Source: Endomicrobiaceae bacterium (GTDB lineage: Bacteria > Elusimicrobiota > Endomicrobiia > Endomicrobiales > Endomicrobiaceae). Taken from it: a stretch of DNA of 64,000 bases. Below, one piece after another: positions 2,771 through 41,110 of the stretch (the first letter of the stretch is position 1; every line of letters begins with the position of its first letter). The notes beneath the pieces are model-generated. The model worked only from the letters and a program-made list of their open reading frames with translations, had not been told where the DNA came from and ran no database searches. The translations under genes were made by a program, and so were the position numbers. Where the stretch lies: assembly GCA_963666965.1 (NCBI GenBank), contig OY762939.1, forward strand, positions 1,235,287-1,299,286, read 5' to 3'.

Positions 2771-3229
2771 ATGAAGAAGAATCTTGTTTTAGCTTTGTTG
2801 GCAGTGGCGGTTTGTTCATTAGCTGTTTATGCCGAAGACGTAAAAATAAAGACTGAGGCTCAAAATGCAGCAGCAAGCATCGAAAAAAAAGTTGATAATG
2901 CAAATGCTACAGCAGAAAGTGTAAGAAGCAAAGGTAAGGAAAAATCAAATGCAGAAATAAAAAAAGCTGAAGCAGAAGTAAAATCAGAAGCAAAAAAAGC
3001 CGAAGCTAAAGCAAAGTCAGAAGCAAAGAAAGCTGAAGCTAAAGCAAAAGCTGAAGCAAAAAAAGCGAAAGACAAAGTTAAGATAAAAACTGAAAAAATA
3101 AAACAACAAGTTGCTGTTCCTGCAGATAATTCAGTCGCTGTTTCAACAGTTGCAAGTCCTGTTGTTTTATCAACAACAGCGGTTGTAAATGAAATTGTTC
3201 TTTCAACGCATCCGTCTGTATTAAAATAA
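2771..3229 (+). CDS. secreted Lys/Ala/Glu-rich repeat protein
   Basis: Has an RBS (ggagag) and the signal peptide MKKNLVLALLAVAVCSLAVYA. The core is degenerate tandem repeats, KAEAEVKSEAKKAEAKAKSEAKKAEAKAKAEAKKAK, also visible as a DNA periodicity at about 2955-3070. Confidence 0.6.
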   Translation: MKKNLVLALLAVAVCSLAVYAEDVKIKTEAQNAAASIEKKVDNANATAESVRSKGKEKSNAEIKKAEAEVKSEAKKAEAKAKSEAKKAEAKAKAEAKKAKDKVKIKTEKIKQQVAVPADNSVAVSTVASPVVLSTTAVVNEIVLSTHPSVLK

Positions 3230-3293: not shown

Positions 3294-4358
3294 TTATTTT
3301 ACCGGAACTCTTCTTATCGGATGATGGGAACATCTGAATCCGCCGCCCATCTGAGACAGAGCATCAAAAGGGACTTTTATAACCGTAACACCTCTTTTTT
3401 TAAGCTCATTTTCAAGATAAGAATATCTTTCGTCAATAATTACTTTATTTTTTTTAAGAATAAAGATGTTTGCCGCCAGATTATTTGCATCTTCAACAGG
3501 AACTTCAATGAAGTCCCATTTTTTCAGAGAATCGGGAAGTTCTCCGGTAAAAGCTTCTTTTACTATGATGCCGAGCCCCGGCCTTATAAGCGACATTACG
3601 CAGTCAAGATGCTGAAAATTTTTTATATTTATCTGATGAACTTTATAAGAAGGACCGAGATATCGCTGCAGCCAATTGATCCCTTCAACGCTTGTAGCGT
3701 TTCCTGAAAAACCGACATAGATTTCCTTGCCGTTTAACAAAACATCTCCGCCTTCAATATAAATTTCTTCATTTTTAAAACTTGGTGAGACCGAAGGTGT
3801 TGCTATATATTGAATATTTTTATCGTTTTCAAGAAAAGGTTTGAAAATTTTTCTTATTATAAATTTTTCTCTTGCTCTCATCGGAATTTTTAAAGATGTT
3901 TCGATAACTTTATCGCCTATTACCAAAACAGGATCTCTGGGATAAAGGAAGTTAAATCCTTTTTCAAGATTTTGCATGTAATCAAGTTCTTCTTTTGAAA
4001 GCATATCAGGATCAAGTCTGTGTACGGCAACTCCGTTTTCTTTAAGCACTTTTTCAAGATTATTAGATTGAAATACGAGTTTATCATAAAAGGCTTTATC
4101 TGCGGTTTCTATCGGAGTTCCTCCGTAGTCTTCCATCCATTTTTTATTGTCTTTAGAATAATTAAAACCAAACTCCACAGTAGGATAATAACCGGGAACG
4201 GTCAACATTTTTGGAGAACCTAAAATAACTTCTTCTAATTTATCCCATTCATATGCGACATAGACATTGCTTTTTTTATTTGCCTGTGCGCAAACGGCAA
4301 CAGTTGTTAAAATCGTAATTAAACCCAAAACAAGAAACATAACGGCAGTATCTTTCAT
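3294..4358 (-). CDS. exported amidinotransferase-fold (GME superfamily) enzyme
   Basis: The C-terminal GGGFRCSHHPIRR closely resembles the catalytic-Cys motif GGGFHCWTCDVRR of glycine/inosamine amidinotransferases. The N-terminus, MKDTAVMFLVLGLITILTTVAVCAQA, looks like a signal or lipoprotein peptide. Confidence 0.6.
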   Translation of the reverse strand: MKDTAVMFLVLGLITILTTVAVCAQANKKSNVYVAYEWDKLEEVILGSPKMLTVPGYYPTVEFGFNYSKDNKKWMEDYGGTPIETADKAFYDKLVFQSNNLEKVLKENGVAVHRLDPDMLSKEELDYMQNLEKGFNFLYPRDPVLVIGDKVIETSLKIPMRAREKFIIRKIFKPFLENDKNIQYIATPSVSPSFKNEEIYIEGGDVLLNGKEIYVGFSGNATSVEGINWLQRYLGPSYKVHQINIKNFQHLDCVMSLIRPGLGIIVKEAFTGELPDSLKKWDFIEVPVEDANNLAANIFILKKNKVIIDERYSYLENELKKRGVTVIKVPFDALSQMGGGFRCSHHPIRRVPVK

Positions 4359-4380
4359 CTATAGCCTCCAAATTCGCTTA

Positions 4381-4485
4381 TTTTTTTTGATCATAAATTT
4401 ATTATATTATAATACATCGTGTAAAATTTACAATGTTTAAATTAATTTAACTGCTCTTTTTTATCATAAAATAAAATGATAAAAT
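4381..4485. repeat. direct repeat copy 1 (flanks the radical SAM cassette); contains the inverted repeat TTATCAT-N8-ATGATAA
   Basis: The core 4431-4485 matches 11201-11255 at 50 of 55 positions with no gaps. Weaker similarity extends back to 4381. The internal palindrome lies at 4461-4482. Confidence 0.75.
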
Positions 4486-4572
4486 AGCTGGTAAACGGAA
4501 TAAGTCTTTTTAGTTTTTTTAACTTAAATATATATTTATTTGTGTGTCTGTAAAATTTAAAAGGATTTTTGA

Positions 4573-6177
4573 ATGACTGGTTCAAATAATTACATAGCTG
4601 AAGCAGAAATATGTTTTAACAACAAAGATTATTCAAATGCAAGAATAAATCTTCATAGAGTGTTGGCGGCGAATTTAAATGATGATCACTCAAGATATCT
4701 GTTGGCCGAATGTGCCGCAAAACTGTTTTTGCACAGAGAAGCGATATTTAATTTTAAAAAATTAATAGATAAAAACTACGGTATATTACACAGCCACTGG
4801 CTTTCGCTTTATAATATATATAACGACTTATGCAATTTTTCACAGGCCGTATACTCTCTTAATGAATCTAAAAAAAACGGACTTAGCGATGATATGTACG
4901 AAAAATATATATTTGAAATTTGCTACAAGGCAATAAGATATGTTCATGAATATAATTTAAGCAGAGATTATACAAAAGCATCCGAGATCTCTTCCGAAAT
5001 GATTAAAGTTTTGCCTCAAAAGTATAAAAAATACTGCAATGCGTTTTTATCCGAAAAGGAACTTGCCGATAAAAAAATTATTTTGGAATCAAAACCAAGA
5101 GTTATAACCGCAGTATTAACTACAAAATGCAATGTTAAATGTTTAATGTGCGATTTGCACAAGAAAAAACAATATGAACTGCCGGAGAAAACAAAAGACG
5201 AATTATTGAAAGCCATTCCGTATTTGGAAAGAATTGTGCTTTTGGGCGGAGAGATTTTTCTCTATTCTCATTTTGAAGAAATTATTGATGTGGCAATGAA
5301 ATATCCCGTTAATATCGACATTATAACCAACGGAACGCTTTTGACTCCGAATATTGTTGAAAAACTTGTTCAATGCAACGGAGATATTGCGATTTCTGTA
5401 GACGGCACAACAAAAGAAATTCATGAACGTATAAGAAAAGGAATTGATTTTGACAAAGTAGTTGAAAATATAAAATTAATAAATGCTATGAGAAAAAAAT
5501 ACAATTCTAAAATAACATTAAAATTGTACGTTACTATAATGAAAAGCAACTATCGCCAATTGGAAGATTTTATTGAATTTGCACATGACTACAGTTTTGA
5601 TTTTATATTTATAAATTCGGTCAATTACAGAAATAGTGACGAAGATATTTTTTATACTAATTTTATTCCTGAAGCGATAGAATTTATATCTGATAAAAAA
5701 AGCATAGTTGCAGAAAAAGCAAAAAAATATAATATCACTTTAATGGAAACTCTGCCTGATAAGAGAATGTATTTGGAATGGTTAAGGCCTTTAATGGAAC
5801 AATATTTAAAAGAAGGCAAAAACACTGAAATCATAAAAAAATATTTGGAATATATAAACAAAGACAGCGATGCAACGGCGCGTCAAGAACAGCAAGACGG
5901 TTCGGTAAAAAAAGAAATTAATTGTTATGTCCCGTGGCGGAAATTATATCTGGATTTTGACGGTACTATCAGGCCTGACTGTTATTGTTGGAATCATTTC
6001 GGAGATAACAGGAATGTTATCGGCAATGTTATGGAAAATTCTATTGAAGAAATTTGGAATTCAGAAGCTATGCAGAATTACAGAAGAAAGATTTTGGAAT
6101 GCAATAATGATTCCATATGCAGTAATGAATGTTTGTGCGGCAAGGTGCCGGATCATAATTTAAGGAAAATATATTAA
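4573..6177 (+). CDS. TPR-like N-terminal domain + radical SAM + 7-Cys SPASM-like domain protein (paralog 1)
   Basis: RBS aagga. The motif ESKPRVITAVLTTKCNVKCLMC contains CX3CX2C (Cys codons at 5128, 5140, 5149). There is a GGEIFL SAM motif. The C-terminus is CYVPW...G..C-Y-C...CNNDSICSNECLC. Confidence 0.8.
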   Translation: MTGSNNYIAEAEICFNNKDYSNARINLHRVLAANLNDDHSRYLLAECAAKLFLHREAIFNFKKLIDKNYGILHSHWLSLYNIYNDLCNFSQAVYSLNESKKNGLSDDMYEKYIFEICYKAIRYVHEYNLSRDYTKASEISSEMIKVLPQKYKKYCNAFLSEKELADKKIILESKPRVITAVLTTKCNVKCLMCDLHKKKQYELPEKTKDELLKAIPYLERIVLLGGEIFLYSHFEEIIDVAMKYPVNIDIITNGTLLTPNIVEKLVQCNGDIAISVDGTTKEIHERIRKGIDFDKVVENIKLINAMRKKYNSKITLKLYVTIMKSNYRQLEDFIEFAHDYSFDFIFINSVNYRNSDEDIFYTNFIPEAIEFISDKKSIVAEKAKKYNITLMETLPDKRMYLEWLRPLMEQYLKEGKNTEIIKKYLEYINKDSDATARQEQQDGSVKKEINCYVPWRKLYLDFDGTIRPDCYCWNHFGDNRNVIGNVMENSIEEIWNSEAMQNYRRKILECNNDSICSNECLCGKVPDHNLRKIY

Positions 6178-8571
6178 GTGAATATTCAACTGAAATATGA
6201 AGCAGAATTAAACGACGGATTAGATTTTATAAGAAGGTCTATAGACGATTCGCAGTTTGCAGCCGCGATCAGAAAATCTTTGGATATGCTTAAAGTTTAT
6301 GTAGATAACGAAACTATACTTCTTGAGCTTGCAAAAGCTTATTTTTTTTCCGGCAATTACCAGCAGTCCAAAGATATATTTGGCAGTCTTTTAAAATCAC
6401 AAAACAAACATGCCTATGTTTTTCTGGCGATGATTGCAAAATCCGAAAACAACTTTACGGATGCCCAAAAATATCTTGAACAAGTAAATTCTTTGTTTCC
6501 GGAAGATACTGAAATAATAGTTAATTTAATCGATGTATATAAGCTTCTGGGAAAAACAGAAGAGGCTGAAAAAATTATTCATAATATCAATATACAATCG
6601 GTAATAGGCGAACCGAACATAAATCATATGTTGATTAGAACTTTCAGAATAATGAATCTGGTAAGTTCGGCAAATAAAATAGGCGAAGAAATATTGGCAA
6701 AAGATCCCGGCAACATCAGGGTCATTATAGAGCTTGCATATAATAATATCCATATAAAACGTTTTGAAAAAGCTGAATATTTATTGAAAAAAATAAACAC
6801 AGACAATATGGATGCATTATTTGCCTGGTCGGAATTATATAAAGCAAAAAATGATATCGGTAAATATAAAAAAATAACAAAGAAAATTTTAAGAAAAGAT
6901 AAATATCATATCGGGCTGGAGCTTTCTTTGGCCAATATGTATTCTCTCAATAAACAATATAAAAAATCGATCACAATATTAAAATATCTTATAAAAAAAT
7001 ATCCTCAGGAAAAACATACTATACAATCCATACTTTGCCAGCAGTACAGAGAAAGCGGCAACAAAAAAGAACTGCTCTCTTTAAGTATGCAAATTTTTGA
7101 AACGAACAATAATGATAAAGGTTTATTTTTGGAAATAATAGATATATGCATGCAGTCGGATAAATTTATTGAAGCTTTGAAAACCATATTTAATTTCAGA
7201 AATGACGATAATATCGAGCTTGAACAAATTAAAGATAGAGTATACGCAAAACTGCTTGAATATATTCATGATAAAAATATCAAAGGTTATAAAGTTGAAG
7301 TTTATATGCTTGCCGCTAAATGCTGCAAAATCATTCCCGTAAATGAAATAAAAATCAGAAATGCTTTGATGAATGAGAAAGAGATAACGGCAGACAGAAT
7401 CTTTCTTCATTCAAAACCCAGAAGAATGCAGGTGATACTTACAAATAAATGCAATCTTCAATGCATAATGTGCAATGTTCATGAAACAGAATGGTCTTTT
7501 TCGGAGCAAAAAGCAAAAGAGTTAAAAGAATTGATGCCTTATTTGGAGCATCTTGTCTGGCAGGGCGGAGAAGTTTTTTTGCATAAAGATTTTGGAGACT
7601 TGCTGGAAACAGCATTTAAAAATAAAGTAAATCAAACCATAATTACAAACGGTTTGTTGATTACCGATGAAATTGCCGAACGACTTGTTAAATACGGAGT
7701 TAAATTGGCAGTTTCAATAGATTATATTGAAAAAGAAGGATATGAAAAAATAAGAAGAAACGGCAGTTTTGAACAACTGGTTACTAATTTAAAAACATTA
7801 AATAAAATGCAAGACAGATATCGTAATAAAGATTTTGATATGAAAATGTCCGTTGTAGTAATGAAATCCAATTATGATAAACTGTATGACATATTGGAAT
7901 TTGCAAGAAAATATAAATTTAACAGCATAGAGTTAAATCCTATTCAATTGAGAACAGCCAATACTGAAGAACAAATGTTTTTCATAAATATTGACTATCC
8001 GAAAATCAGACATCTGAATATGTTAATTCCGGAATTAACGGAACAAGCCAGGAAATACGGTATAAAAATAATTTCGGCGATCCCTTCGGAAAGCGTTGCT
8101 GAAAATATGCTTCAGGAAACAAAACAATTTAATATAACAAAAGCTCAAATAAACGAATATATTGTCGGCGGCAAAAAAAATATTAATCCTCTGCTTGCAA
8201 ATAAAATTAAAATACCGAATCAAAAATATGTGCCGTTTAAAGAAGGTATAAATAAAACACTTTTGCTGCAGTTGTTTGTGAAGCAATTTTTGTATTTTAT
8301 CAGAAGTAAATTTTATAAAAAAACTCCGGGAAAATACTGTTTTGTCCCTTGGGAGTCCATGTTTGTGGATTTAAACGGATACATAATGCCGGGCTGTAAT
8401 TGTTTTTTATATTATTACGATACTATCAAAAATAATTCTATTTTGGATATTTGGAATTCAAAAAGTATGCAGATATACAGAGCAAATATAGTCAATAAAG
8501 AATATAAAAATATATGCACGCAGCAATGCATACACGGCACAATTACCGTTGACAAAAGGTTATATTTATAG
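6178..8571 (+). CDS. long TPR array (~400 aa) + radical SAM + 5-Cys twitch/SPASM-like domain protein (paralog 2)
   Basis: GTG start directly after the paralog 1 stop. Clear TPR-like repeats (e.g. LELAKAYFFSGNYQQSKDIFGSLLK). HSKPRRMQVILTNKCNLQCIMC has Cys codons at 7450, 7462, 7471. GGEVFL is present. The C-terminus is CFVPW...G....CNC...CTQQC. Confidence 0.8.
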   Translation: MNIQLKYEAELNDGLDFIRRSIDDSQFAAAIRKSLDMLKVYVDNETILLELAKAYFFSGNYQQSKDIFGSLLKSQNKHAYVFLAMIAKSENNFTDAQKYLEQVNSLFPEDTEIIVNLIDVYKLLGKTEEAEKIIHNINIQSVIGEPNINHMLIRTFRIMNLVSSANKIGEEILAKDPGNIRVIIELAYNNIHIKRFEKAEYLLKKINTDNMDALFAWSELYKAKNDIGKYKKITKKILRKDKYHIGLELSLANMYSLNKQYKKSITILKYLIKKYPQEKHTIQSILCQQYRESGNKKELLSLSMQIFETNNNDKGLFLEIIDICMQSDKFIEALKTIFNFRNDDNIELEQIKDRVYAKLLEYIHDKNIKGYKVEVYMLAAKCCKIIPVNEIKIRNALMNEKEITADRIFLHSKPRRMQVILTNKCNLQCIMCNVHETEWSFSEQKAKELKELMPYLEHLVWQGGEVFLHKDFGDLLETAFKNKVNQTIITNGLLITDEIAERLVKYGVKLAVSIDYIEKEGYEKIRRNGSFEQLVTNLKTLNKMQDRYRNKDFDMKMSVVVMKSNYDKLYDILEFARKYKFNSIELNPIQLRTANTEEQMFFINIDYPKIRHLNMLIPELTEQARKYGIKIISAIPSESVAENMLQETKQFNITKAQINEYIVGGKKNINPLLANKIKIPNQKYVPFKEGINKTLLLQLFVKQFLYFIRSKFYKKTPGKYCFVPWESMFVDLNGYIMPGCNCFLYYYDTIKNNSILDIWNSKSMQIYRANIVNKEYKNICTQQCIHGTITVDKRLYL

Positions 8572-10115
8572 TGGACAAATTAAAATCTTTTATTGATAAA
8601 AAACAATATTCGCAAGCGTATAAATTAATAACCGGTAATCCCGGTTTATTAGATGATAAAGATTTGCATAAATATATTTTTACCGTATATTGTCATAACA
8701 GGCACTTTGATAAAGCCAAAGAGTTTTTTTTTAATATCCTGCAAAAAGACGTTCAATCCGAATGTGAAATGATGAATCTGCTTGTGAAAATAGCCGCAGA
8801 TATGGAGTATGAGAATGAGATTTTAGAATTATATTTTTCAATATTGGCAGTTTCGTCCAAAGAATCCGGAATCCTTGAAATAGGCGACGCTTTTATTAAT
8901 TCTAAAAATTATGTTAAAGCAGCAGAATTCTATAAAAAAATTCTTAATATCCGTCCTGATAATATAATTGCTCTCAAACATGCAGCTCAACTTTCAAATT
9001 TTACCGGAGATTTTAAAACAACGCAAACAATCTTAAACGCATCAGTACTGAACAAACATAAAAATAACGAATTTTTATACAACATTCTCCTTAATGAATT
9101 AGAAATTGCCCAAGGGAAAGTATTTATTGAATCCAAGCCGAGGACACTGCTGGTTGCCGTAACCACAAAATGTAATATAAAATGCTTAATGTGCACAAGA
9201 GACAGGATTTGGGATATTCCTGAACATATAAAAAATGAAATTATATCAATGTTTAAATATTTAGAAGTCGTAGTCTGGCAGGGCGGGGAAGTTTTTTTGT
9301 ATAAATATTTTTTTGAGCTGCTGGCCCTTTCAAAATGTAACGCCCAACTAAGGCATATAATAATCACAAACGGGCTTTTTTTTACAGATAAATGGATAGA
9401 TCTGCTTCTGTCTATAAAAAATTTGGATTTGACCGTATCAGTAGACGGGACTACGAAAGAAGTTTATGAGAAAATAAGAGCCGGTGCAAATTTTGAAAGA
9501 TTAAACGATAATTTAAAAAGATTGGCAGATAAGAAAAAACAAACAGGAAATAATATGCTTCTCACACTCAGATGCGCTGTTATGAAAAGCAATCACACTC
9601 AAATTGTTGACTTTGTTAAATTTGCGATTAAATATGATTTTAAAATTGTCATATTGGCTCCCGTTCAAAATTTACACGATGAAGAAAATATTTGGAACGA
9701 TTTGGATGAGGGTATAAATAATTATATCGCGCAACAATACGAAATCGCCTCCGGTTTGGCTAAAGAACATAATATTGAACTTGTAAGCTGGCTGCCGTTA
9801 AAGAGAAAAACAACACATATTGATACAAACAACAATCATACTGTCCCCGTAGATGATAAAATAAACAACGGTTTATTATGTTTTAGACCCTGGAAACAAA
9901 TTACATTAAATGTTGACGGATTTATAATGCCGGAATGCTTATGTCAAAAACAAATATCAACAGTCGATAAAGTAACATCATTTGCCGACGTTTGGAATTC
10001 TGACATTATGATGGAATACAGAAAACATATATTGAATTTTGATTATTCATGGTGTAATAAAGATTGTATCGCAGGGGCTGTTTCGGAAGAACATTTGAAA
10101 TTTTTAAGCAGATAA
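8571..10115 (+). CDS. TPR + radical SAM + 5-Cys twitch/SPASM-like domain protein (paralog 3)
   Basis: GTG start overlapping the previous stop by 1 nt (TAGTG). TPR-like GDAFINSKNYVKAAEFYKKILNIRPDN. ESKPRTLLVAVTTKCNIKCLMC has Cys codons at 9171, 9183, 9192. GGEVFL is present. The C-terminus is CFRPW...G....CLC...CNKDC. Confidence 0.8.
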   Translation: MDKLKSFIDKKQYSQAYKLITGNPGLLDDKDLHKYIFTVYCHNRHFDKAKEFFFNILQKDVQSECEMMNLLVKIAADMEYENEILELYFSILAVSSKESGILEIGDAFINSKNYVKAAEFYKKILNIRPDNIIALKHAAQLSNFTGDFKTTQTILNASVLNKHKNNEFLYNILLNELEIAQGKVFIESKPRTLLVAVTTKCNIKCLMCTRDRIWDIPEHIKNEIISMFKYLEVVVWQGGEVFLYKYFFELLALSKCNAQLRHIIITNGLFFTDKWIDLLLSIKNLDLTVSVDGTTKEVYEKIRAGANFERLNDNLKRLADKKKQTGNNMLLTLRCAVMKSNHTQIVDFVKFAIKYDFKIVILAPVQNLHDEENIWNDLDEGINNYIAQQYEIASGLAKEHNIELVSWLPLKRKTTHIDTNNNHTVPVDDKINNGLLCFRPWKQITLNVDGFIMPECLCQKQISTVDKVTSFADVWNSDIMMEYRKHILNFDYSWCNKDCIAGAVSEEHLKFLSR

Positions 10116-10116
10116 A

Positions 10117-11058
10117 ATGAAAAGAACAACTCTTTTTAAGTTTTTAAGCATAACAGTTGCACTGATTTTTTCCTTGGGTATATCTGTTATAATTTTATGG
10201 AAATTTAATTATAAGAATGCAGATTCCCGGCAGTTAAAAGGAGAATATGTTGATAAAAAAAATCATATTCATGACCCTGACTTTGAATATCCGTTATTAA
10301 AACCTAATAAATCATATAGCTGTTTTTGTTTTATCGGCAATCAACTAATCTATAATGTAAAGTATGGCATCGACGAAAATTCCTTCAGAAAAGTAAAATA
10401 CGATACTGCAGGCACGGAAATGTTTATATTTGCCGGATGTTCTTGTATGTTCGGTGAAGGATTGGAAGACGATCAAACTATTCCTTACTGTTTTTCTGAG
10501 ATGAATTCCTATAAAAATAAAATTATAAATATGGGATATCCGGCAACCGGAACTCATCATGTTTTAAAATGGTTAGAATCTGAGAAAATGAAGAAACTGT
10601 CCTGGGTTAAACCAAAGTATATAATATATCTTTTTATGGATGATCATATTTTCCGAGCATACGAACAACAGAAAATTTTTACCGTTTTTTATGAAGAAAA
10701 CGGTAAAATTTTTGAAAGAAAAAAAACAAAAGAAGAACCATGGTCAGGAGACTATTTAAATTCAAATATAAAGTCCTCAAGGATAATATATAAAGATAAG
10801 GCAAAAGATTTTACAATAAAATTAATAGCTGAAATAGATAAAATAGCAAAAATGGAATATAAGTCTAAATTTCTTCTGGTTTTATGGCCCGGAGAACTCT
10901 CGGACAGCATTTATGCCAAATGCTCTGAACAAAATATAGATGCTTTAAAACTTAAATTCGATGATATTACAAAATATATAATACCTGATGACGGCCATCC
11001 TAACGCAACAGGAGCTCAAGAAACAGCAAGGCAAATATATGAATATATTTCAAAATAA
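10117..11058 (+). CDS. membrane-anchored SGNH/GDSL-like hydrolase or acyltransferase (tentative)
   Basis: The ATG is 1 nt after the paralog 3 stop. N-terminal TM helix. Candidate block I is FAGCSCMFGEG, block II is NMGYPATG and block V is DDGHPN (DxxH). Confidence 0.45.
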   Translation: MKRTTLFKFLSITVALIFSLGISVIILWKFNYKNADSRQLKGEYVDKKNHIHDPDFEYPLLKPNKSYSCFCFIGNQLIYNVKYGIDENSFRKVKYDTAGTEMFIFAGCSCMFGEGLEDDQTIPYCFSEMNSYKNKIINMGYPATGTHHVLKWLESEKMKKLSWVKPKYIIYLFMDDHIFRAYEQQKIFTVFYEENGKIFERKKTKEEPWSGDYLNSNIKSSRIIYKDKAKDFTIKLIAEIDKIAKMEYKSKFLLVLWPGELSDSIYAKCSEQNIDALKLKFDDITKYIIPDDGHPNATGAQETARQIYEYISK

Positions 11059-11134
11059 ATACTTATAAAAATTAAGATAGCTTTTATCCCGTTTGTTTTT
11101 TGGGGGGATTAAAGTCCTTCTGATTTAGTTGTTT

Positions 11135-11255
11135 TTTATTTGATAGTTAAGAAAGAAAATTTTAAAATTTGTTATATTATGCTATGTTGTATCAGATTTG
11201 CAATGTTAAAATTAATTTAACGGTACTTTTTTATAATAAAATAAAATGATAAAAT
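11135..11255. repeat. direct repeat copy 2 (downstream flank of the radical SAM cassette)
   Basis: See copy 1. The core is 11201-11255. The -10-like hexamer tataat (11232-11237) replaces tatcat of copy 1. There is a ~20-nt insertion relative to copy 1 in the left part. Confidence 0.75.
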
Positions 11256-11293
11256 CTCAGTTGCCAGGTTAAGATGAGTTATGCGGAGTTGTA

Positions 11294-14039: not shown

Positions 14040-14729
14040 ATGGAAAATTTGTTTTTTCAAATACTGATAATAATAACAACAATTGCGATATACGCTTTGA
14101 GTCTTAACTTCAAAAAAGTTAAGTATATAAAAGCTGTTCCTCCAAGCATTTTATGCGCGTTGATAATTTATATTCTCCTCGGCGTTTTAAAAATAGATTT
14201 CCATGTTTATAATGAAGGCGGCCAATTTTTTACATTTTTGCTAGGGCCTGCTATAGTCGCTTTATCGGTGCCGCTTATAAAAAACATAAAAGTACTTGAA
14301 AAAAATTATCAGGTAATATTAACGGCGGTTTGTATTTCCAGCTTGTTTGCAATATTATCCGTTATAGGCGTGGCAGTTATTCTAAAAGCAAATAAAGATA
14401 TTCTTTTATCAATGGTGGCAAAGTCCGTAACTACTGCGGTTGCAATTGAAATTACGGATATGTTGGGCGGCAAGATTGAAATAATCGTTCTGATAACGGC
14501 TTTGTCAGGAATGTTCGGCGCCATATTCGGACACTGGATATTAAAAGCCATAAATATAAAAAATAATTTCTCGATAGGCGTGGCTATAGGATCTGTCAGT
14601 CATGTTTTGGGGACTGCAAAATGTTATGAAGTAAACCAGCTTCAGGCAGGAGTCAGCAGCGTTACTCTTGTTTTATCATGCATAACTACGGCAATTTTTG
14701 CTCCTCTTATAATAAAACTGATATTTTAA
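14040..14729 (+). CDS. lrgB: LrgB/CidB family membrane protein
   Basis: 229 aa polytopic protein. LrgB-like segments SVTTAVAIEIT and GSVSHVLGTA. Confidence 0.7.
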   Translation: MENLFFQILIIITTIAIYALSLNFKKVKYIKAVPPSILCALIIYILLGVLKIDFHVYNEGGQFFTFLLGPAIVALSVPLIKNIKVLEKNYQVILTAVCISSLFAILSVIGVAVILKANKDILLSMVAKSVTTAVAIEITDMLGGKIEIIVLITALSGMFGAIFGHWILKAINIKNNFSIGVAIGSVSHVLGTAKCYEVNQLQAGVSSVTLVLSCITTAIFAPLIIKLIF

Positions 14730-14743
14730 AAGGAATTGAATAT

Positions 14744-15508
14744 ATGAATGAGGTTATTTCAATTAAAAATATTTCCGTACAGCGCGGCGGAAAACAAATA
14801 TTAAAAAATATCAATTGGACAACGCATATCGGTGAAAATTGGTTTTTGATGGGGGAAAACGGCTCGGGAAAAACTACTCTTATCGAAATACTTGTCGGTT
14901 ATTTGTGGGCACAAGAAGGCAACGTTTCAATAATGGGCGAAAAATTCGGGCATACAAATTTACGAGACTTGAGAGCAAAAGTCGGTTATGTTTCATCCTG
15001 GATTATGAAAAGAATACCTAATTATGTTCTTGTTGAAGATGTCATTGCTTCCGGAACTGACGCATCAATAGGGAGTTTCAGAGAGAAACCCGAAAATCTT
15101 ATAAATGCCGTAAAAAATAAACTTGAATTCTTTAAATGTTCTGAACTTATCGGCCGCAAATTCGGCACGCTGTCATCAGGCCAGCAGTTAAAATGCATTC
15201 TGGCAAGAGCAATGATAAACGAACCGAAACTTTTGATTTTAGATGAGCCTTTTTCTCTTCTTGATGTCGGTTCCAGAATAGATATGTATGAGCATATAAC
15301 AGAGCTCAGCAAAAATGTATCAGCGCCCCAGATAGTTATGGTTACTCATCATAAAGAAGATATAATACCGGTATTTACGCACGGAATTATAATTAAAAAC
15401 GGTAAAACTGGCGTTCAGGGTTTTAGAGAAGATGTTTTAAATCCGTCTGTTTTTGCAAAAATGTTCGGAATAACCGCAAATAATTTTGAAAAATATTTCT
15501 CAAAATAA
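14744..15508 (+). CDS. orphan ABC transporter ATP-binding protein
   Basis: Walker A GENGSGKTT, signature LSSGQQ, Walker B LLILDEP. I moved the start to the ATG at 14744 (MNEVISIKN), because the track ORF start overlaps lrgB. Confidence 0.75.
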   Translation: MNEVISIKNISVQRGGKQILKNINWTTHIGENWFLMGENGSGKTTLIEILVGYLWAQEGNVSIMGEKFGHTNLRDLRAKVGYVSSWIMKRIPNYVLVEDVIASGTDASIGSFREKPENLINAVKNKLEFFKCSELIGRKFGTLSSGQQLKCILARAMINEPKLLILDEPFSLLDVGSRIDMYEHITELSKNVSAPQIVMVTHHKEDIIPVFTHGIIIKNGKTGVQGFREDVLNPSVFAKMFGITANNFEKYFSK

Positions 15509-15522
15509 AAAGGGTAAAAAGC

Positions 15523-16092
15523 ATGTTTAAAAAAATTATCAAACTGATTGTTGTTTTTTTAACAGGCTTAATTATTATTACAGGTTTATATTTTTCATAT
15601 AACTGGATTACTGGCAATTTCCATACTGTTAGCGCAAAACAAGCATACAGATCAAAGCAACTAAGTAAGAAACAGTTGGAGCATTACATAAAAAAATATG
15701 ATATTAAAAGTGTTCTAAATCTGCGTGGAGCCGAACCTGGAATCAAGTGGTACGAAGATGAAACAGCCATAGGTAAAGCATATGGAGTAGAGTATTATGA
15801 TGTGGGAATATCCGCTATGGTTTTACCGGAAGATAAAAATATGTCCGAAATAATAAATATTTTGAAATCAGCGCCAAGACCCATTCTTATTCATTGTCTT
15901 GGAGGCGCAGATCGAACAGGACTTGTTTCTGCGATATGGAAAATTGTGATAGACAAAGAATCAAAAGAAGAAGCTTCAAAACAACTTTCTGTATTTTACG
16001 GACATATGCCGTTCGGAAAAGCAAGAGCCATGGACAGATGGCTTGCTACACACAATATAAATTCCGATACAGATGAAATTACAAAATTTTAA
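15523..16092 (+). CDS. membrane-anchored Cys-based protein phosphatase (CX5R)
   Basis: N-terminal TM helix. Active-site motif HCLGGADRTG (HCX5R-T/S). Confidence 0.65.
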   Translation: MFKKIIKLIVVFLTGLIIITGLYFSYNWITGNFHTVSAKQAYRSKQLSKKQLEHYIKKYDIKSVLNLRGAEPGIKWYEDETAIGKAYGVEYYDVGISAMVLPEDKNMSEIINILKSAPRPILIHCLGGADRTGLVSAIWKIVIDKESKEEASKQLSVFYGHMPFGKARAMDRWLATHNINSDTDEITKF

Positions 16093-16163
16093 AACAACTG
16101 CAAATCACGCCGGAAGTTTTTAATAATAAATACCGGAATAAAAATATTGTTTTTTATAAAAGG

Positions 16164-16192
16164 TTGATAATGTTTTTCTCATTTGCTAAAAT
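16164..16192 (+). promoter_or_regulatory. sigma70-like promoter candidate for ablAB
   Basis: TTGATA (16164-16169), a 17-nt spacer, then TAAAAT (16187-16192), about 100 nt upstream of the ablA start. Confidence 0.4.
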
Positions 16193-16292
16193 ATCGTCGC
16201 AGGTTCAAATAAATATCTGAAAAAGATTCTGGCGAAATAATATATACAGTCTCTGAATTAAAAAAAACTTACCAAAGTAAGAGGGAGGTCTT

Positions 16293-17603
16293 TTGATTTT
16301 TACTACAAATCAAGAAAAAATAACAAAAAGAATTAAAAAAACAAAATGGGAAGATTGGACGTGGCAAATAAAACACACTATCAAAACTCTTAAACAATTT
16401 GAAGAACTTACAGGTATCAAATTTGCAGAAGAAGAAAAAAACATTCTTGAAGAAACAATCAGAAAATTTCCGCTCAGTATTACGCCTTATTATTTATCAT
16501 TAATAGATTTAAATAATTATAAAAATGATCCGGTTTATTTACAATCGTTTCCGTCTCCTAAAGAAATGGATATTTGTCCTCATGAAATGAGTGATCCTCT
16601 TTCTGAAGATAAAGATTCTCCTGCGCCTTATCTTACGCACAGATATCCGGACAGAGTTCTTCTGCATGTCAGTAATTTATGTTCAATGTATTGCAGACAC
16701 TGTACAAGAAAAAGAAAAGTCGGTGACAGAGATTCTATTCCCGGTTTTGAAGAACTTGAGAAAGCTTTTAACTATATAGAAAGTAACAGTAAAGTTAGAG
16801 ATGTTCTTCTGTCAGGAGGAGATCCTTTAATGCTTTCCGATGATTATTTGGATAAGATATTGAACAGAATATCTCAAATTCCGCATGTTGAAGTTATCAG
16901 AATCGGAACGAGAATGCCGGTCGTTCTCCCGTATAGAATTACAACAAAGCTTATAAAAGTTTTAAAAAAGTATCAGCCTCTTTATATCAATACTCATTTC
17001 AATCATCCGAGAGAAATGACTTTTTCTGCCAGAAAAGCATTATCAATGCTTTCAAACGCAGGAATAGTTCTTGGCAATCAGTCGGTGTTATTATCGGGCG
17101 TAAATGACTGCCCAAGGATAATAAAAACTTTATGCCAAAAGCTTGTACAAAACAGAGTGCGTCCTTATTATCTGTATCAATGTGATTTATCCGAGGGGCT
17201 GACTCATTTTAGAACTCCGATAAATAAGGGAATTGAAATTCTTGAAAGTCTGATAGGTCATACTTCGGGCTTTGCAAGACCGACATACGTTATTGATGCT
17301 CCGGGCGGAGGGGGAAAAATACCGGTTGAACCTAATTATGTAATTTCGCACGGAACTAACAAAGTAATATTACGCAATTATGAAGGAATTATCACAACTT
17401 ACAAAGAGCCTGATTCGTATGAAGCAACTTTTTGCGACAGAGACTGCATTAATTGCAAACTTCAGTTAAATCTTGAGGAAGCAAATAAATTTTCCACTAT
17501 AGGTATAGAAAAATTGTTATCGGATACCGATAAGACAATATCTCTTATTCCGAGTATTAACCAGAGAATAAAGAGAAGGAAACAAATTAAAAAAGATCAA
17601 TGA
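16293..17603 (+). CDS. ablA: lysine 2,3-aminomutase (radical SAM, PLP)
   Basis: RBS gagggagg followed by a TTG start. The [11 protein letters not shown] cluster motif and full-length (436 aa) KamA architecture are present, with YYLYQCD and GGGGK motifs. Confidence 0.85.
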
Positions 17604-18436
17604 AACAGGATATAGTAGAAACTATCTGCAATTCAATTGTTCAGCACGGAAAAAACAGCGACCGTGTGTATATAATGAAAATCGGCACTAAAAATACGGC
17701 CGGTTTAATAAAAACAGTTAACGAATTGGCGGAAAAAAATAATTATTCAAAAATATTTGCAAAAATTCCATCTGCAATGCTTGATGAGTTTTTAAAAGAC
17801 GGATATGTCAGGGAAGCTTTTATAAAAGGATACTACAACGGAAAAGAGGATGCTTTTTTACTCGGCAAGTATTTACACAAAGAACGTTCAGTACTAAAAA
17901 ATAAGTTTGAAATAGAATCAATTATTTCAACGGCAAACAGTAAAAAAAATACTTTGCCTTCACAGATTAATAAACAATATAAAATTATTATATGTTCTAA
18001 GAAACATTCACGGGAAATGGCGGATATATATAAATTAGTTTTTAAAAGTTACCCTTTTCCTATACATGATCCGAAATACATAGAACAAACAATGGATGAT
18101 AATATAATATATTTCGGGGCCGTGTACAATGACAAAATTATAGCATTATCTTCTTCGGAAATGGATAAACAGGCGCAAAGCGTTGAAATGACTGATTTTG
18201 CCACAGTTCCGGAATATTTAGGAAAAGCGACTGCTCTGCACTTATTAAAAGAAATGGAAAAACATATGATTGGTAATAAAATTATTACATCATATACGAT
18301 TGTGCGTTCGGAATCTGCCGGAATGAATATTACTTTTGCCCGAAACGGCTATGAATACTCGGGAACACTGATAAACAATACCAACATTGCAGGCAAAATT
18401 GAAAGTATGAATGTGTGGTATAAAACTCTTAAATAA
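17600..18436 (+). CDS. ablB: beta-lysine N6-acetyltransferase-like GNAT
   Basis: ATGA overlap with ablA. 278 aa with a C-terminal GNAT fold. The N-terminal [15 protein letters not shown] resembles the AblB family. Confidence 0.65.
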
Positions 18437-21424: not shown

Positions 21425-21506
21425 GCTGGGGTGGCGGAACTGGCATACGCGCACGCTTGAGGTGCGTGTCCTTAACCGGATACGGGTTCAACTCCCGTCC
21501 CCAGCA
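21425..21506 (+). tRNA. tRNA-Leu(GAG), type II with long variable arm
   Basis: Acceptor gctgggg/ccccagc. Anticodon stem cacgc/gcgtg with loop ttGAGgt. T-arm gggttcaactccc. Confidence 0.85.
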
Positions 21507-21522
21507 TAAGTTTGAAAGTTTT

Positions 21523-21594
21523 GCGGGCGTAGCTCAGTGGTAGAGCGTCTCGTTGCCAACGAGAATGTCGTGGGTTCAAGTCCCATCGCCCGCT
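21523..21594 (+). tRNA. tRNA-Gly(GCC)
   Basis: Acceptor gcgggcg/cgcccgc, anticodon loop ttGCCaa, T-loop gggttcaagtccc. Confidence 0.9.
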
Positions 21595-21696
21595 TATGAT
21601 ATATTTAATATTCCCGACGATAAAAGCAAAACAATTGCCTTTCACGTCGGTTTTTTAATTCTAAGACTGCTGTATGGTTTATCTGTTGTTTCAAAA

Positions 21697-21769
21697 GGGG
21701 CTGTAGCTCAGCTGGGAGAGCGCTTCGTTCGCAACGAAGAGGCCGTCGGTTCAATCCCGATCAGCTCCA
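21697..21769 (+). tRNA. tRNA-Ala(CGC)
   Basis: Acceptor ggggctg/cagctcc with the G3:U70 identity pair. Anticodon loop ttCGCaa. Confidence 0.9.
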
Positions 21770-23984: not shown

Positions 23985-24152
23985 GTCATAATGCGTACCT
24001 CCGAGGGTTTTTAAATTTAACGATCGGTCTCCTGACTCAGAGCTTTGAATTTCAGATAAACCCTTCCCGCTTTGGCAGTGGGAGTATCTTCCTTGCATAC
24101 GCTCATTACAGTAGCTGGACTGTATCCGGTTTTCACGGATTTCCCGTTCATC
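23985..24152 (-). promoter_or_regulatory. cobalamin riboswitch (canonical)
   Basis: The minus strand reads GGGAAatccGTGAaaaCCGGatacaGTCCaGCTACTGTAA, followed by a B12 box GAGTCAGGAGACCGATCG (plus-strand coordinates 24021-24038). Confidence 0.8.
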
Positions 24153-24157
24153 GTTAT

Positions 24158-24937
24158 TTATTTTTCACTGAAAACAGGTATCACGACCGGCTTGTTGGAG
24201 ACAGGGTTTGTCTTTACAACAACAGTCGTATTATATACCGTTTCAATATCTTTGTAATTTAGCACTTCAGTTGCGGTGCCGCTGCTGAAAATAATTCCAT
24301 TGTTCATCAGAATCAAATCCGAACAAAATTCTCCGGCTGCATTCAAATCATGAATAGTCGTAATTATAGTTTTGCCGTGTTTTAAATTTAAAGTTCGTAA
24401 AAGCCTGAAAATTGCCGACTGGCTTCCTATATCAAGATGAGATGTAGGTTCGTCAAAAGCGATGATATCGGTTTCCTGGGCAAGAGTCTGCGCGATTAAA
24501 ACTTTCTGTCTTTCGCCGCCCGACAATTCAAGTATATTTCTTTCGGCAAAGTTTTTTGTTTCCGTAAAATCCATGATTTCTTCAACTTTCTCATAATCGC
24601 GTTTTGTGGCATATTTAAAAAGATTCATACGGGGGAACCTGCCGAACATTATGAAATCTTTTACGGAAAAAGGAAAATCAATCGGCATATTTTGAGGCAT
24701 GAAAGACAGTTTTTCGGCTAAAATATTTTTTTTCATTTTATAAATATCTGTTTCATGTAACAGTATATTTCCGGCATACGGTTTTAAAAGGCCCGACAGA
24801 GATTTTAGAAGAGTTGTTTTTCCGGCTCCGTTTTTGCCTATGATGCCCGTAAAAGAGCCTTTTTTGATATCAATTGATATGTTTTTTACGACGGATATTT
24901 TATTGTAACCGCATGATAAATTCTTAATTTGTATCAT
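24158..24937 (-). CDS. btuD: FecCD-type ABC importer ATPase
   Basis: Walker A GKNGAGKTT, signature LSGGERQ, Walker B IIAFDEPTSHLD. Confidence 0.7.
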   Translation of the reverse strand: MIQIKNLSCGYNKISVVKNISIDIKKGSFTGIIGKNGAGKTTLLKSLSGLLKPYAGNILLHETDIYKMKKNILAEKLSFMPQNMPIDFPFSVKDFIMFGRFPRMNLFKYATKRDYEKVEEIMDFTETKNFAERNILELSGGERQKVLIAQTLAQETDIIAFDEPTSHLDIGSQSAIFRLLRTLNLKHGKTIITTIHDLNAAGEFCSDLILMNNGIIFSSGTATEVLNYKDIETVYNTTVVVKTNPVSNKPVVIPVFSEK

Positions 24938-38254: not shown

Positions 38255-38290
38255 AATTGATTTTTGTCTATACCAGTACAGGAGAATTAC

Positions 38291-40011: not shown

Positions 40012-40053
40012 TGATTTGTTGTAAAAAATACGTCATATTTGTATAATAAAAAA

Positions 40054-40881: not shown

Positions 40882-40897
40882 AATACGGAGTAAGAAC

Positions 40898-41110
40898 GTG
40901 GTAAAACAAGCCGCCGAAGAAAATGAAAAATATACCTGGAAACCCGATATAAAATGGCTGTTTAAAGTTCTTGCCGCAGTTTATGTATCAATTATAATTT
41001 TATTTTTAATTGCAAGTTTTGTGCTGAAGCCTGCCGTAAGACATATTCCTTCAGAGATAACTCCGTGGCTTGATAAAAATCATGCCGAAAAGATTGGAGA
41101 TATAAAATGA
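40898..41110 (+). CDS. small single-TM protein embedded in the kds/lpt operon
   Basis: 70 aa, GTG start, one TM helix (VLAAVYVSIIILFLIASFVL). Its stop overlaps the kdsC start (ATGA). Confidence 0.4.
   Translation: MVKQAAEENEKYTWKPDIKWLFKVLAAVYVSIIILFLIASFVLKPAVRHIPSEITPWLDKNHAEKIGDIK

Follow-up and report, generated by a model that had tools for sequence, protein, structure and literature searches.

New chemistry of peptides and cofactors has one of its main sources in the SPASM/twitch radical SAM enzymes, whose discovery has leaned on two signposts, an RRE and a neighbouring precursor gene. The cassette examined here, from the genome of a gut-type member of the Elusimicrobia, encodes three TPR-fused radical SAM proteins belonging to a family that shows neither signpost, yet is large. 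The locus poses the question of what such enzymes act upon and how they reach it. We address this by following up a preliminary description of the window, by which we mean the whole 64-kb stretch of DNA that was analysed.

Results

The four ORFs of the cassette (Table 1) are spaced by 0, -1 and +1 nt, and the sole plus-strand terminator-like hairpin outside coding sequence follows paralog 4, where the operon likely ends. The earlier claim that the four packed ORFs form one transcript stands as a prediction: with a shared strand, minimal spacing and one terminator, paralogs 1-4 make up one predicted operon. Gene calls made independently on metagenome contigs of 99% identity reproduced the boundaries of paralogs 1-3. 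All four reading frames are unbroken across 6.5 kb, and no further members of the family, which we refer to as TPR-rSAM-twitch, were found elsewhere in the 64-kb window. Being compact and fully intact, the window operon is suited to heterologous work.

Table 1. Features of the cassette and its flanks; positions are those of the window
Feature	Positions	Strand	Residues (aa)	Remarks
Left copy of 91-nt direct repeat	4395..4485	+		Ends 88 nt 5' of paralog 1 start codon
Paralog 1	4573..6177	+	534 in all	TPR-like, radical SAM and SPASM/twitch-type domains; profiles, motifs, AF2, Foldseek
Paralog 1, TPR-like solenoid	4573..5067	+	1-165	
Paralog 1, radical SAM core	5116..5583	+	182-337	CX3CX2C at aa 186-193
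Paralog 1, helical insert			397-439	
Paralog 1, SPASM/twitch-type domain	5923..6132	+	451-520	
Paralog 2	6178..8571	+	797 in all	GTG start; profiles, motifs
Paralog 2, long TPR array			about 39-330	
Paralog 2, radical SAM	7432..7902	+	419-575	
Paralog 2, SPASM/twitch-type domain	8338..8529	+	721-784	
Paralog 3	8571..10115	+	514 in all	GTG start; 1-nt overlap with paralog 2 stop; profiles, motifs
Paralog 3, TPR-like N-terminus			1-185	
Paralog 3, radical SAM	9159..9560	+	197-330	
Paralog 3, SPASM/twitch-type domain	9879..10067	+	437-499	
Paralog 4 (P4)	10117..11058	+	313 in all	N-terminal TM anchor and predicted SGNH/GDSL-fold domain; motifs, Foldseek
Paralog 4, block I			107-109	GCS
Paralog 4, block V			291-295	DGHPN
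Poly-A tract within paralog 4	10255..10262	+		A8 (window) in frame; A7 (four metagenome contigs) breaks frame
Terminator-like hairpin	11100..11123	+		42 nt past paralog 4 stop; followed by T-rich tail
Right copy of 91-nt direct repeat	11165..11255	+		Upstream of TIGR03546/TIGR03545 gene pair

Paralogs 1-3 were thought to share a TPR region, a radical SAM core and a Cys-rich C-terminal domain, and profile searches agree: PF04055 (Radical_SAM) scored 72.3, 69.6 and 57.7 bits against paralogs 1, 2 and 3, respectively (Pfam cut-off 29.5), and PF13186 (SPASM) 43.5, 33.3 and 24.6 bits (Pfam cut-off 21.5), above cut-off in all three. The TPR part of the claim holds by profile for paralog 2 (TPR_19, 74.6 bits; Pfam cut-off 25) and by structure for paralog 1, whose AlphaFold model (AF2; pLDDT 86.6) shows residues 3-165 as nine antiparallel helices with pLDDT >90; at the sequence level, paralogs 1 and 3 match Pfam TPR models only below threshold. 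The motifs listed earlier, namely (E/H)SKPR, T(T/N)KCNxxCxMC (which contains CX3CX2C), GGE(I/V)FL and C(Y/F)xPW...C-x-C, were found in all three paralogs, with the GGE SAM-binding motif invariant, and the core identity among paralogs 1-3, put at about 40% by eye, was computed as 36%. Hydrophobic segments are missing from the TPR-rSAM-twitch proteins and their insert is hydrophilic; they are soluble, and paralogs 1-3 are read as cytoplasmic enzymes. Foldseek matches of the paralog 1 model were headed by SkfB and included SuiB, CteB and anSME (similar in overall fold, E about 1e-10 to 1e-9), DesII and BlsE, and also viperin and MoaA, the best target-normalised TM score being that of BlsE (0.72); the sequence identity of paralog 1 to solved structures is 13-17%.

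The preliminary description correctly counted seven, five and five C-terminal Cys in paralogs 1, 2 and 3, and suggested that paralog 1 might carry extra auxiliary clusters. The latter idea is weak, because the family does not conserve C510 and C522 of paralog 1, which are N/G and S/K in most relatives. Conservation of the other C-terminal Cys, on which that description had made its reading depend, is high: among 122 family representatives C451 is kept in 121, C470 in 104, C472 in 120, C516 in 119 and C520 in 116, that is, four in at least 95% and the fifth in 85%. All five are present in paralogs 1-3 together with all catalytic motifs, the modal C-terminal count is five (61/122), and each of the three Cys of CX3CX2C is kept in 120-122 representatives. 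The resulting family signature, C-x18-C-x-C...C-x3-C, is compatible with a twitch domain and unlike the 7-Cys SPASM motif. A twitch domain, a shortened form of the SPASM domain, has one auxiliary cluster by definition, and such clusters accept electrons (PMC9012708). Five conserved, twitch-like Cys imply one putative auxiliary cluster in each TPR-rSAM-twitch enzyme. A full SPASM domain, with about 7-8 Cys ligating two auxiliary clusters, is not what the five Cys conserved family-wide predict. The twitch model NF033640 (NCBIfam) aligns over positions 98-378 of its 398, covering both core and C-terminal domain, yet scores 85, 68 and 73.5 bits against paralogs 1, 2 and 3, all below its cut-off of 170.

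No PqqD/RRE match was returned for paralogs 1-3 by Pfam or NCBIfam profiles, and the AF2 model of paralog 1 shows no winged helix separating TPR region from barrel, the solenoid (3-165) being followed by the barrel strand at 177-183; both results bear out the reported lack of an RRE. Nor was an RRE/PqqD-like gene seen in the related arrays examined. As also reported, the spacers 4359-4572 and 11059-11293 contain no plausible precursor ORF of at least 20 aa, and no conserved small ORF, protease or transporter/exporter was found in 17 array loci. Most genes in those loci abut or overlap; a precursor encoded outside the arrays remains compatible with this search. With neither an RRE/PqqD-like domain nor a precursor gene clustered at the loci examined, an RRE-dependent RiPP radical SAM maturase was rejected as an identity for these enzymes. 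No NCBIfam family cut-off was reached that would place the three proteins in a characterised family: the best matches, TIGR04311 (97, 92 and 72 bits for paralogs 1, 2 and 3) and TIGR04317 (88, 86 and 67 bits), reach roughly a quarter of their cut-offs (380-400).

Paralog 4 had been described as an SGNH-like membrane protein. Its N-terminal TM helix, its GCS and DGHPN motifs and its Foldseek matches, of which the top 20 are all GDSL/SGNH esterases (TMt up to 0.67, for a model with a pLDDT of only 62.5), support a membrane-anchored protein with a predicted SGNH fold. It has no Pfam domain match, and with NF047474 it reaches 28.9 bits, far short of the required 300. The orthologues P0180 and P0181 are 54% and 53% identical to it, respectively; GCS (S109) is invariant in the three P4 homologues, and DGHPN (D291, H293) is common to P4 and P0180, P0181 being truncated upstream of block V. 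A distant P4 relative is accompanied by a carbamoyltransferase/SxtJ cassette.

Paralogs 1-3 belong to a large, uncharacterised, array-forming enzyme family, with 641 representatives (clusters at 50% identity) at E<=1e-30. A domain scan of 89 representatives found Radical_SAM in all, SPASM in 72 and TPR in at least 41, and 82 of 122 are extended at the N-terminus by 100 aa or more. About a third of the family is without TPR, so catalysis cannot depend on it, nor can recognition in every case. MAGs of Elusimicrobiota, Omnitrophota and Planctomycetota contain tandem arrays that range from 2 to at least 15 paralogs; the only recurrent partners in the 17 array loci are further rSAM subfamilies, and paralog order is kept across L019, L025 and L026. 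Between orthologues the TPR regions diverge faster than the cores (34% vs 46% identity, and 45% vs 69%). Individual loci adjoin a variety of envelope enzymes. A P4 orthologue followed by an NAD epimerase/dehydratase stands at the array end in L087, a TM-anchored GDSL+TPR protein lies within the array of L012, and a CE4 deacetylase with a signal peptide shares an operon with a family paralog in L008; neighbours elsewhere are a PMT_2 GT-C enzyme (L014), GT9 and GT4 (L017), an LtaS/EptA-like sulfatase-family protein (L027) and a 12-TM orphan (L023). These envelope-enzyme neighbours are mostly carbohydrate- or lipid-active, and their recurrence is a raw tally of loci.

The direct repeats that had been noticed on either side of the cassette are real, 91 nt long and 84% identical. 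Both sub-motifs tested occur in the window at these two sites only, the longer one being matched in 0 of 100 shuffles, and the left copy holds the palindrome TTTATCAT-N8-ATGATAAA; the repeat is probably a duplicated promoter/operator region. The AT-richness judged by eye is confirmed by windowed GC (0.308 for the cassette vs 0.349 for the rest of the window), and 0 of 186 other 6.5-kb windows fall below 0.334. The GC3 of the cassette genes matches that of other genes (0.24-0.30 vs a mean of 0.293), and since it is normal the low GC alone is no sign of recent foreign origin.

P1-P4 is an old block, seen again in another contig, where it forms the 3' end of a larger array. In L087 the core of the paralog 2 orthologue is 46% and that of the paralog 3 orthologue 70% identical, P1 is cut to its last ~55 codons and P4 contains an in-frame TAA. 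Paralog 3 is split by a 1-nt deletion at 9195 in three contigs (L001, L003 and L004), and the A7 frameshift of P4 is found in 4/4 related contigs. Nonsynonymous to synonymous differences number 13:4 in P1+P2 vs 13:39 in the flanking genes (Fisher p = 3e-4), although the counts are small. The close relative L023 is 92.3% identical from position 11227, inside the right repeat, rightward and carries a different, seven-paralog array to the left. To judge from the frameshifts, nonsense codon, deletion and nonsynonymous excess, the P1-P4 block appears to be decaying. The cassette is a reduced, decaying member of an array-forming family and no one-off, and it may be non-functional in this lineage. 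We take the module to be a predicted accessory one, in a variable slot upstream of TIGR03546/TIGR03545 and apparently under relaxed or diversifying selection.

Discussion

Our working hypothesis, to which we give somewhat less than an even chance, is that paralogs 1-3 are TPR-docked radical SAM oxidoreductases whose substrate, reached in trans, is an exported protein or peptide of the envelope. Each paralog would bind SAM on its CX3CX2C cluster, generate a 5'-deoxyadenosyl radical and take an H atom from the substrate; the single Cys-ligated auxiliary [4Fe-4S] cluster would take the second electron, so that the net result would be oxidation by two electrons, crosslinking or some related step (cf. 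BtrN, SuiB and PqqE). The variable-length TPR domain would dock a protein or long peptide encoded elsewhere, in place of an RRE, and possibly partner paralogs too, each paralog acting at its own site. The target would most likely be an exported or envelope component, because the arrays repeatedly adjoin membrane-anchored envelope-modifying enzymes, and the SGNH protein could de-acylate or acyl-transfer on it at the outer face of the inner membrane.

Parts of this scheme are familiar. Like paralogs 1-3, the twitch enzymes BtrN, MoaA and SkfB, and NF033640, combine CX3CX2C with conserved C-terminal Cys that are, by count, too few for two clusters; unlike the family described here, they are not known to carry an N-terminal TPR solenoid or to form multi-paralog arrays. 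PF13186, the domain of the SPASM maturases (SuiB/StrB, CteB, AlbA, PqqE and anSME), is matched in paralogs 1-3 too, whereas no RRE, adjacent precursor or protease/exporter was found at the family loci examined. anSME, too, is without an RRE but acts on sulfatases; no FGly-type sulfatase partner of that sort was seen here. The maturases carry out a two-electron oxidation with an auxiliary cluster as acceptor (PMC9012708), as is likely here. TPR-fused peptide-tailoring enzymes are known in the flavoenzyme BhaC1 of the pearlin pathway (PMC11002830) and in PbsE, a TPR-arginase of a biphenomycin-like pathway (PMC12257519). Both join TPR to a catalytic domain whose target is a residue carried on a peptide, the likeness being one of domain architecture: their catalytic domains are flavin and arginase as opposed to radical SAM, and they are clustered with precursor peptides, whereas the present family is not. 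By such analogy it is a reasonable inference that TPR may stand in for the RRE in substrate recognition. Groundwater Elusimicrobia have been reported to carry 0-13 clustered radical SAM genes, including B12-binding and HemN_C fusions beside nifHDK-like genes (Meheust et al., bioRxiv 10.1101/765248). Those arrays resemble ours, by description, in their phylum and in the variability of their radical SAM clusters, but no nif-like neighbours were present at the loci examined here.

A protein substrate is open to the objections that TPR could mediate paralog assembly instead of substrate capture, that the mostly carbohydrate- or lipid-active neighbours fit a glycan or glycolipid at least as well, and that the structural neighbours include the small-molecule enzymes BlsE, DesII, viperin and MoaA. 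The main rival is accordingly the tailoring of an envelope glycan or glycolipid, in which BtrN/DesII/BlsE-type chemistry would act on intermediates in the making of a variable surface polysaccharide or LPS, whether sugar-nucleotide, undecaprenyl-linked or lipid A/core, TPR would be a scaffold only and the SGNH protein would add or remove O-acyl groups after export. Surface-glycan loci are typically variable between relatives, low in GC and subject to homopolymer switching, and the present locus is wholly different between genomes with a 92%-identical flank, is low in GC and contains a tract whose length (A8/A7) turns P4 on or off. The SGNH, CE4, GT9, GT4, PMT_2 GT-C, LtaS/EptA-like and NAD epimerase/dehydratase neighbours come from independent lineages, the carbamoyltransferase/SxtJ cassette beside the distant P4 relative points the same way, and BlsE, DesII and viperin act on sugars or nucleosides. 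Against this, the arrays are almost purely rSAM, with no flippase, polymerase, sugar-nucleotide synthesis genes or multiple glycosyltransferases; the enzymes have no membrane- or lipid-binding segment and GC3 is normal; and a small-molecule substrate would leave unexplained the TPR solenoids (3 to about 18 repeats) found in over half of the family. On balance we regard glycan or glycolipid tailoring as a serious candidate that is nevertheless somewhat unlikely to be correct.

That the cassette is instead a decaying relic of a once larger array, functionless here and in close relatives and with only transiently intact frames, appears distinctly unlikely to us. The lesions in P3 and P4 of related contigs, the remnant P1 and in-frame TAA of L087, the nonsynonymous excess and the solitary occurrence of the cassette in the window would all be expected of a relic, but four frames have stayed open over 6.5 kb, the catalytic motifs and conserved Cys of paralogs 1-3 are retained, P2, P3 and P4 orthologues persist across lineages only 46-70% identical, and the nonsynonymous excess, with its small counts, also fits diversifying selection. 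An enzyme-maturation role is improbable. Here the paralogs would resemble the tungsten-oxidoreductase maturase, the putative metalloenzyme maturase of TIGR04311, NirJ/Ahb or PqqE, with TPR holding a client enzyme, as the identity of the best NCBIfam matches and the up to 13 radical SAM genes beside novel nitrogenase paralogs in groundwater Elusimicrobia (10.1101/765248) might suggest; yet those matches lie far below cut-off, no client oxidoreductase, nitrogenase-like or tetrapyrrole gene adjoins any array examined, and a dispensable, strain-variable locus would be unusual for cofactor biosynthesis. We give very little credence to an antiviral or conflict system of viperin-like nucleotide-modifying effectors in which TPR senses invader proteins and the arrays diversify in an arms race. 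Viperin-like enzymes are the top PDB sequence matches, PADLOC pVip models match paralogs 1 and 2 (77 and 74 bits), the locus differs from one close relative to another and the TPR regions are fast to diverge. However, the pVip matches cover the generic rSAM core only (model positions 2-203 of 257 for paralog 1, 5-186 for paralog 2) and not the full model with its C-terminal nucleotide-binding extension, do not extend to paralog 3 and are no better than those of MoaA, NirJ or maturase models, while viperin_w_prok (NCBIfam), whose cut-off is 180, reaches 68, 59 and 37 bits. A SPASM-type domain is present in each of the three paralogs, and pVips are not known to have a SPASM/twitch domain; an identity as prokaryotic viperin was rejected on these partial core matches and the SPASM-type domain. 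No known defence genes were found near the arrays examined, the family is absent from viral contigs except for generic rSAM matches, and the order kept in three genomes favours a pathway or complex over an arms-race cassette.

Returning to TPR-docked modification of envelope proteins, it is tempting to speculate on an RRE-independent system of post-translational modification, hitherto unrecognised, although we think it rather unlikely in its full form. The paralogs of an array, up to 15 or more in number, would use TPR to capture the same or related exported envelope proteins, encoded in trans, each paralog installing a different radical crosslink or oxidation. They would thereby write on the cell surface, in Elusimicrobiota, Omnitrophota and Planctomycetota, a 'radical code' that varies with the strain and can be phase-switched. 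What is new here is a large array-forming TPR-rSAM-twitch family, its five-Cys signature, an old decaying P1-P4 block and a swapped array in a 92%-identical relative. Over half of the family members are TPR-fused, their tandem radical SAM arrays are among the longest seen, and the phyla that harbour them have hardly any cultured members. Should TPR be the docking module, it would offer a new route to the substrates of 'orphan' radical SAM enzymes, and it could bring to light novel ways in which gut and groundwater bacteria modify their envelope proteins or glycoconjugates.

Organization of the cassette

The four genes of the cassette encode three enzymes that combine a TPR region, a radical SAM core and a SPASM/twitch-type domain (paralogs P1-P3) and a membrane-anchored SGNH-like protein (P4). 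As the preliminary description had proposed, they are tightly packed and are predicted to make up one operon: all lie on the + strand with intergenic spacings of 0, -1 and +1 nt, and a terminator-like hairpin is located 3' of P4. The direct repeats reported at the flanks were found to be 91 nt long, the copies being 84% identical, and within the window the tested parts of the repeat are confined to these two sites. The left copy resembles a duplicated promoter/operator region. In its conserved 3' part the repeat holds TTTATCAT-N8-ATGATAAA, an 8-bp inverted repeat that has a single mismatch in the right copy and is possibly an operator common to the cassette and to the TIGR03546/TIGR03545 operon beyond the right copy. 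The cassette is indeed richer in AT than its surroundings (GC 0.308 versus 0.349), and is the most AT-rich 6.5-kb stretch within the window. Since GC3 is normal, the skew arises at codon positions 1 and 2, i.e. from amino acid composition and not from foreign codon usage, and recent horizontal transfer was rejected as a reading of the AT-richness. Neither flanking spacer contains a credible small ORF, in line with the earlier failure to see a precursor gene.

Features of the window and of related contigs
Feature	Sequence	Coordinates	Strand	Description
152-aa protein gene	window	2771-3229		Secreted; Ala/Lys/Glu-rich repeats (KAEAKAK...); 21-nt in-frame indel, 7 synonymous and 7 nonsynonymous differences from related strains
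Region holding inverted repeat, left copy	window	4459-4485		Conserved 3' part of 91-nt repeat
P1	window	4573-6177	+	ORF, 534 aa
P2	window	6178-8571	+	ORF, 797 aa
P3	window	8571-10115	+	ORF, 514 aa
P4	window	10117-11058	+	ORF, 313 aa
Poly-A tract	window	10255-10262		Within P4
Region holding inverted repeat, right copy	window	11229-11255		Conserved 3' part of 91-nt repeat
tRNA cluster	window	21425-21769
606-aa protein gene	window	22089-23909	-	Signal-peptide-like N-terminus; adjoins ABC-transporter-like cluster
Cobalamin riboswitch	window	24005-24170	-	Rfam RF00174, 71 bits; upstream of 606-aa protein gene
ABC-transporter-like gene cluster	window	24158-26755
ORF run	window	37295-43550	+	Resembles ADP-heptose, Kdo and Lpt LPS-core genes (by eye, N-terminal sequences only); ~26 kb from cassette, unlinked to it
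Fused paralogs	L005 (L011)	14399-18007 (3555-7163)		One 1202-aa protein of two complete TPR-rSAM-SPASM units, inside Planctomycetes array
Orphan gene	L023	12155-13744		529 aa, ~12 predicted TM segments, ~150-aa soluble loop; array neighbour
Long ORF	L050	9938-17176		2412 aa; Nitrospiraceae MAG; weak family-core match (66 bits)
Distant P4 homolog cassette	L090	7221-11371		P0187 (456 aa) after carbamoyltransferase, SxtJ-family and DUF5989 genes; differs from window's cassette, LA_2486-like SGNH module common to both

Domain architecture and family placement

Radical_SAM and SPASM exceeded the Pfam thresholds in all of P1-P3, and alignment of the cores confirmed the (E/H)SKPR, CX3CX2C, GGE and C(Y/F)xPW...CxC motifs as well as the C-terminal cysteine counts of 7, 5 and 5, respectively. 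The claim of three paralogs sharing one architecture therefore stands, with a pairwise core identity of 36% in place of the ~40% judged by eye. The TPR-like N-termini were borne out for P2, which exceeded the Pfam threshold, and by structural modelling for P1; by Pfam, P1 and P3 gave weak matches. A PDB sequence search with the P2 TPR region returned nothing. In the AlphaFold model of P1 (pLDDT 86.6), a protein with no record in an exact-protein look-up, nine antiparallel helices (residues 3-165) are followed by a partial TIM barrel (177-392) and, after an inserted helical segment (397-439), by a small domain at the C-terminus; no winged-helix RRE was found between these parts, as had been anticipated. 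P1-P3 have all that SAM cleavage requires, and a conserved site that is predicted to bind a single Cys-ligated auxiliary cluster.

No curated family claims P1-P3. NCBIfam gave 32-51 matches per paralog, every one at roughly 5-50% of its cut-off; the best, to TIGR04311 (putative metalloenzyme maturase), TIGR04317 (tungsten-enzyme maturase) and NF033640 (twitch-domain radical SAM), scored a quarter to half of theirs. Searching PDB sequences with the core profile yielded generic core matches only, and Foldseek matches were spread over SkfB, SuiB, CteB, anSME, DesII, BlsE and viperin with no clear winner; neighbours by sequence and fold were of generic SPASM/twitch and viperin types (13-22% identity). 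Placement outside characterized families was thus upheld, and no functional transfer was possible.

We defined the family with a profile of the three cores, which recovered 641 cluster representatives at E<=1e-30; the best identity to this profile among GTDB representatives was 41%. Radical_SAM was recognized in 89/89 scanned representatives, SPASM in 72/89 and TPR in at least 41/89, and N-terminal extensions of 100 aa or more were present in 82 of the 122 that were aligned. The family signature consists of the radical SAM triad and five C-terminal cysteines, namely C451 (conserved in 121 of 122), C470 (104), C472 (120), C516 (119) and C520 (116). With only these five conserved, the family appears twitch-like, a twitch domain being defined in the literature as one with a single auxiliary cluster (PMC9012708). 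P1 has two more cysteines, C510 and C522, which its relatives do not share, so that conservation lends no support to the suggestion that cluster number differs among the paralogs. Hydrophobic segments were absent from the 122 family members, a stretch in P2 being unique to that protein; the enzymes are predicted to be soluble, and a lipid substrate or membrane association was rejected on this ground.

P4 had no match in Pfam. It has an N-terminal TM helix and GCS and DGHPN motifs, and the top of the Foldseek list for its low-confidence model held GDSL/SGNH esterases only, consistent with the SGNH-like membrane protein originally described. It is rare: a set of 5.8 billion proteins contained three close homologs, and a metagenome scan with a P4 alignment gave a single distant, uninformative locus.

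Tandem arrays and their neighbours

Relatives are located in tandem arrays, of at least 12 paralogs on a Planctomycetes MAG contig (L005/L011/L016), 10 in an Omnitrophota MAG (L007/L013), at least 15 consecutive radical SAM genes on an ENA contig (L010) and 7-8 in gut and rumen Elusimicrobia MAGs (L018, L019, L025, L026), with paralog order conserved among L019, L025 and L026; another Elusimicrobia genome (L008) has 2+1 paralogs among housekeeping genes. Most array genes abut or overlap. Beside the arrays there was no conserved small ORF (scans of the window and 17 arrays), protease or transporter, so the arrays examined, too, lack an adjacent conserved precursor; two ORFs of 40 and 53 aa in L087 were dismissed as C-terminal remnants of P1 and P4. 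The sole recurrent partners are more divergent radical SAM subfamilies, some without SPASM and one B12-binding. A second such subfamily accompanies the family in the arrays of 11 contigs (L005, L007, L010, L017, L018 and L024 among them), many members being ~280-330 aa without a SPASM match and some having TPR.

Other neighbours vary by locus, yet envelope enzymes recur among them: a GDSL+TPR protein with a TM anchor inside an array (L012), a signal-peptide CE4 deacetylase in the same operon as a paralog (L008), a PMT_2-type GT-C enzyme (L014), GT9 and GT4 (L017), an LtaS/EptA-like membrane protein (L027), the 12-TM orphan (L023) and an NAD epimerase/dehydratase (L087). The L023 orphan, which matched nothing in Pfam or NCBIfam, stands between the array and TIGR03546, the position taken in the window by the SGNH gene.

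History and apparent decay of the cassette

The window organism is a relative of the Elusimicrobiaceae. From 11227 rightward, across the TIGR03546/TIGR03545 pair, the window shares 92.3% identity with an Elusimicrobiaceae MAG contig (L023), which to the left of that point carries a different, 7-paralog array and the 12-TM orphan. The breakpoint falls within the right-hand 91-nt repeat, and the site upstream of TIGR03546 is accordingly a variable slot. One of the P4 homologs (53% identical) closes the 3' end of an array in L087/L088, where orthologs of P2 (46% core identity) and P3 (70%) lie upstream of it together with a remnant of P1 comprising the final ~55 codons; this marks P1-P4 as an old block.

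This block appears to be undergoing loss in several ways. In L087, P1 is deleted and P4 has an in-frame TAA; of four contigs 99% identical to the window, three have lost 1 nt of P3 at 9195. The P4 poly-A tract is A8, in frame, in the window and A7 in all four of these independent metagenome contigs, where the frameshift leaves 60-aa and 212-aa pieces; phase variation, decay or an assembly error could each account for this difference. In P1+P2, the window and L001 differ by 13 nonsynonymous and 4 synonymous changes, versus 13:39 in flanking genes (p = 3e-4). Such a pattern of substitution and disruption points to relaxed or diversifying selection, and the cassette may be functionless in the window lineage.

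Discussion

The TPR solenoid is the hallmark of this family. Its length spans about 3 to 18 repeats, and between orthologs it changes more quickly than the core; TPR domains are likewise fused to the peptide-tailoring enzymes BhaC1 (PMC11002830) and PbsE (PMC12257519). On these grounds we tentatively favour, at somewhat less than an even chance, a model in which the solenoid docks a trans-encoded protein or long peptide. A 5'-dA radical would abstract hydrogen from this substrate and the auxiliary cluster would then take up an electron, as proposed for BtrN, SuiB and PqqE (PMC9012708), giving a two-electron oxidation or a crosslink. The substrate would probably be envelope-destined, with the SGNH enzyme working on its exported form.

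The main rival is that these enzymes tailor a variable surface glycan or glycolipid, the TPR serving as an assembly scaffold only. We consider this somewhat less likely: the nature of the array neighbours and the variability of the loci speak for it, but the arrays are without the usual glycan-locus genes and TPR is prevalent in the family. An antiviral, pVip-like role is a weak candidate and was set aside as the leading idea, as PADLOC pVip matches were generic and a scan of viral contigs, from which the family is absent, gave only weak radical SAM matches. The case for a cofactor maturase is similarly weak, given that the NCBIfam matches all fall below their cut-offs.

Full-text literature searches returned nothing on TPR-radical SAM fusions or their tandem arrays. 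The closest report describes clustered radical SAM genes in groundwater Elusimicrobia (10.1101/765248); those clusters adjoin nitrogenase-like paralogs, whereas no nif-like genes were found at the array loci examined here. Judged by sequence, and with function predicted only, the docking model included, this SPASM/twitch radical SAM family would be one in which TPR fusion and paralog arrays replace the logic of RRE plus precursor.
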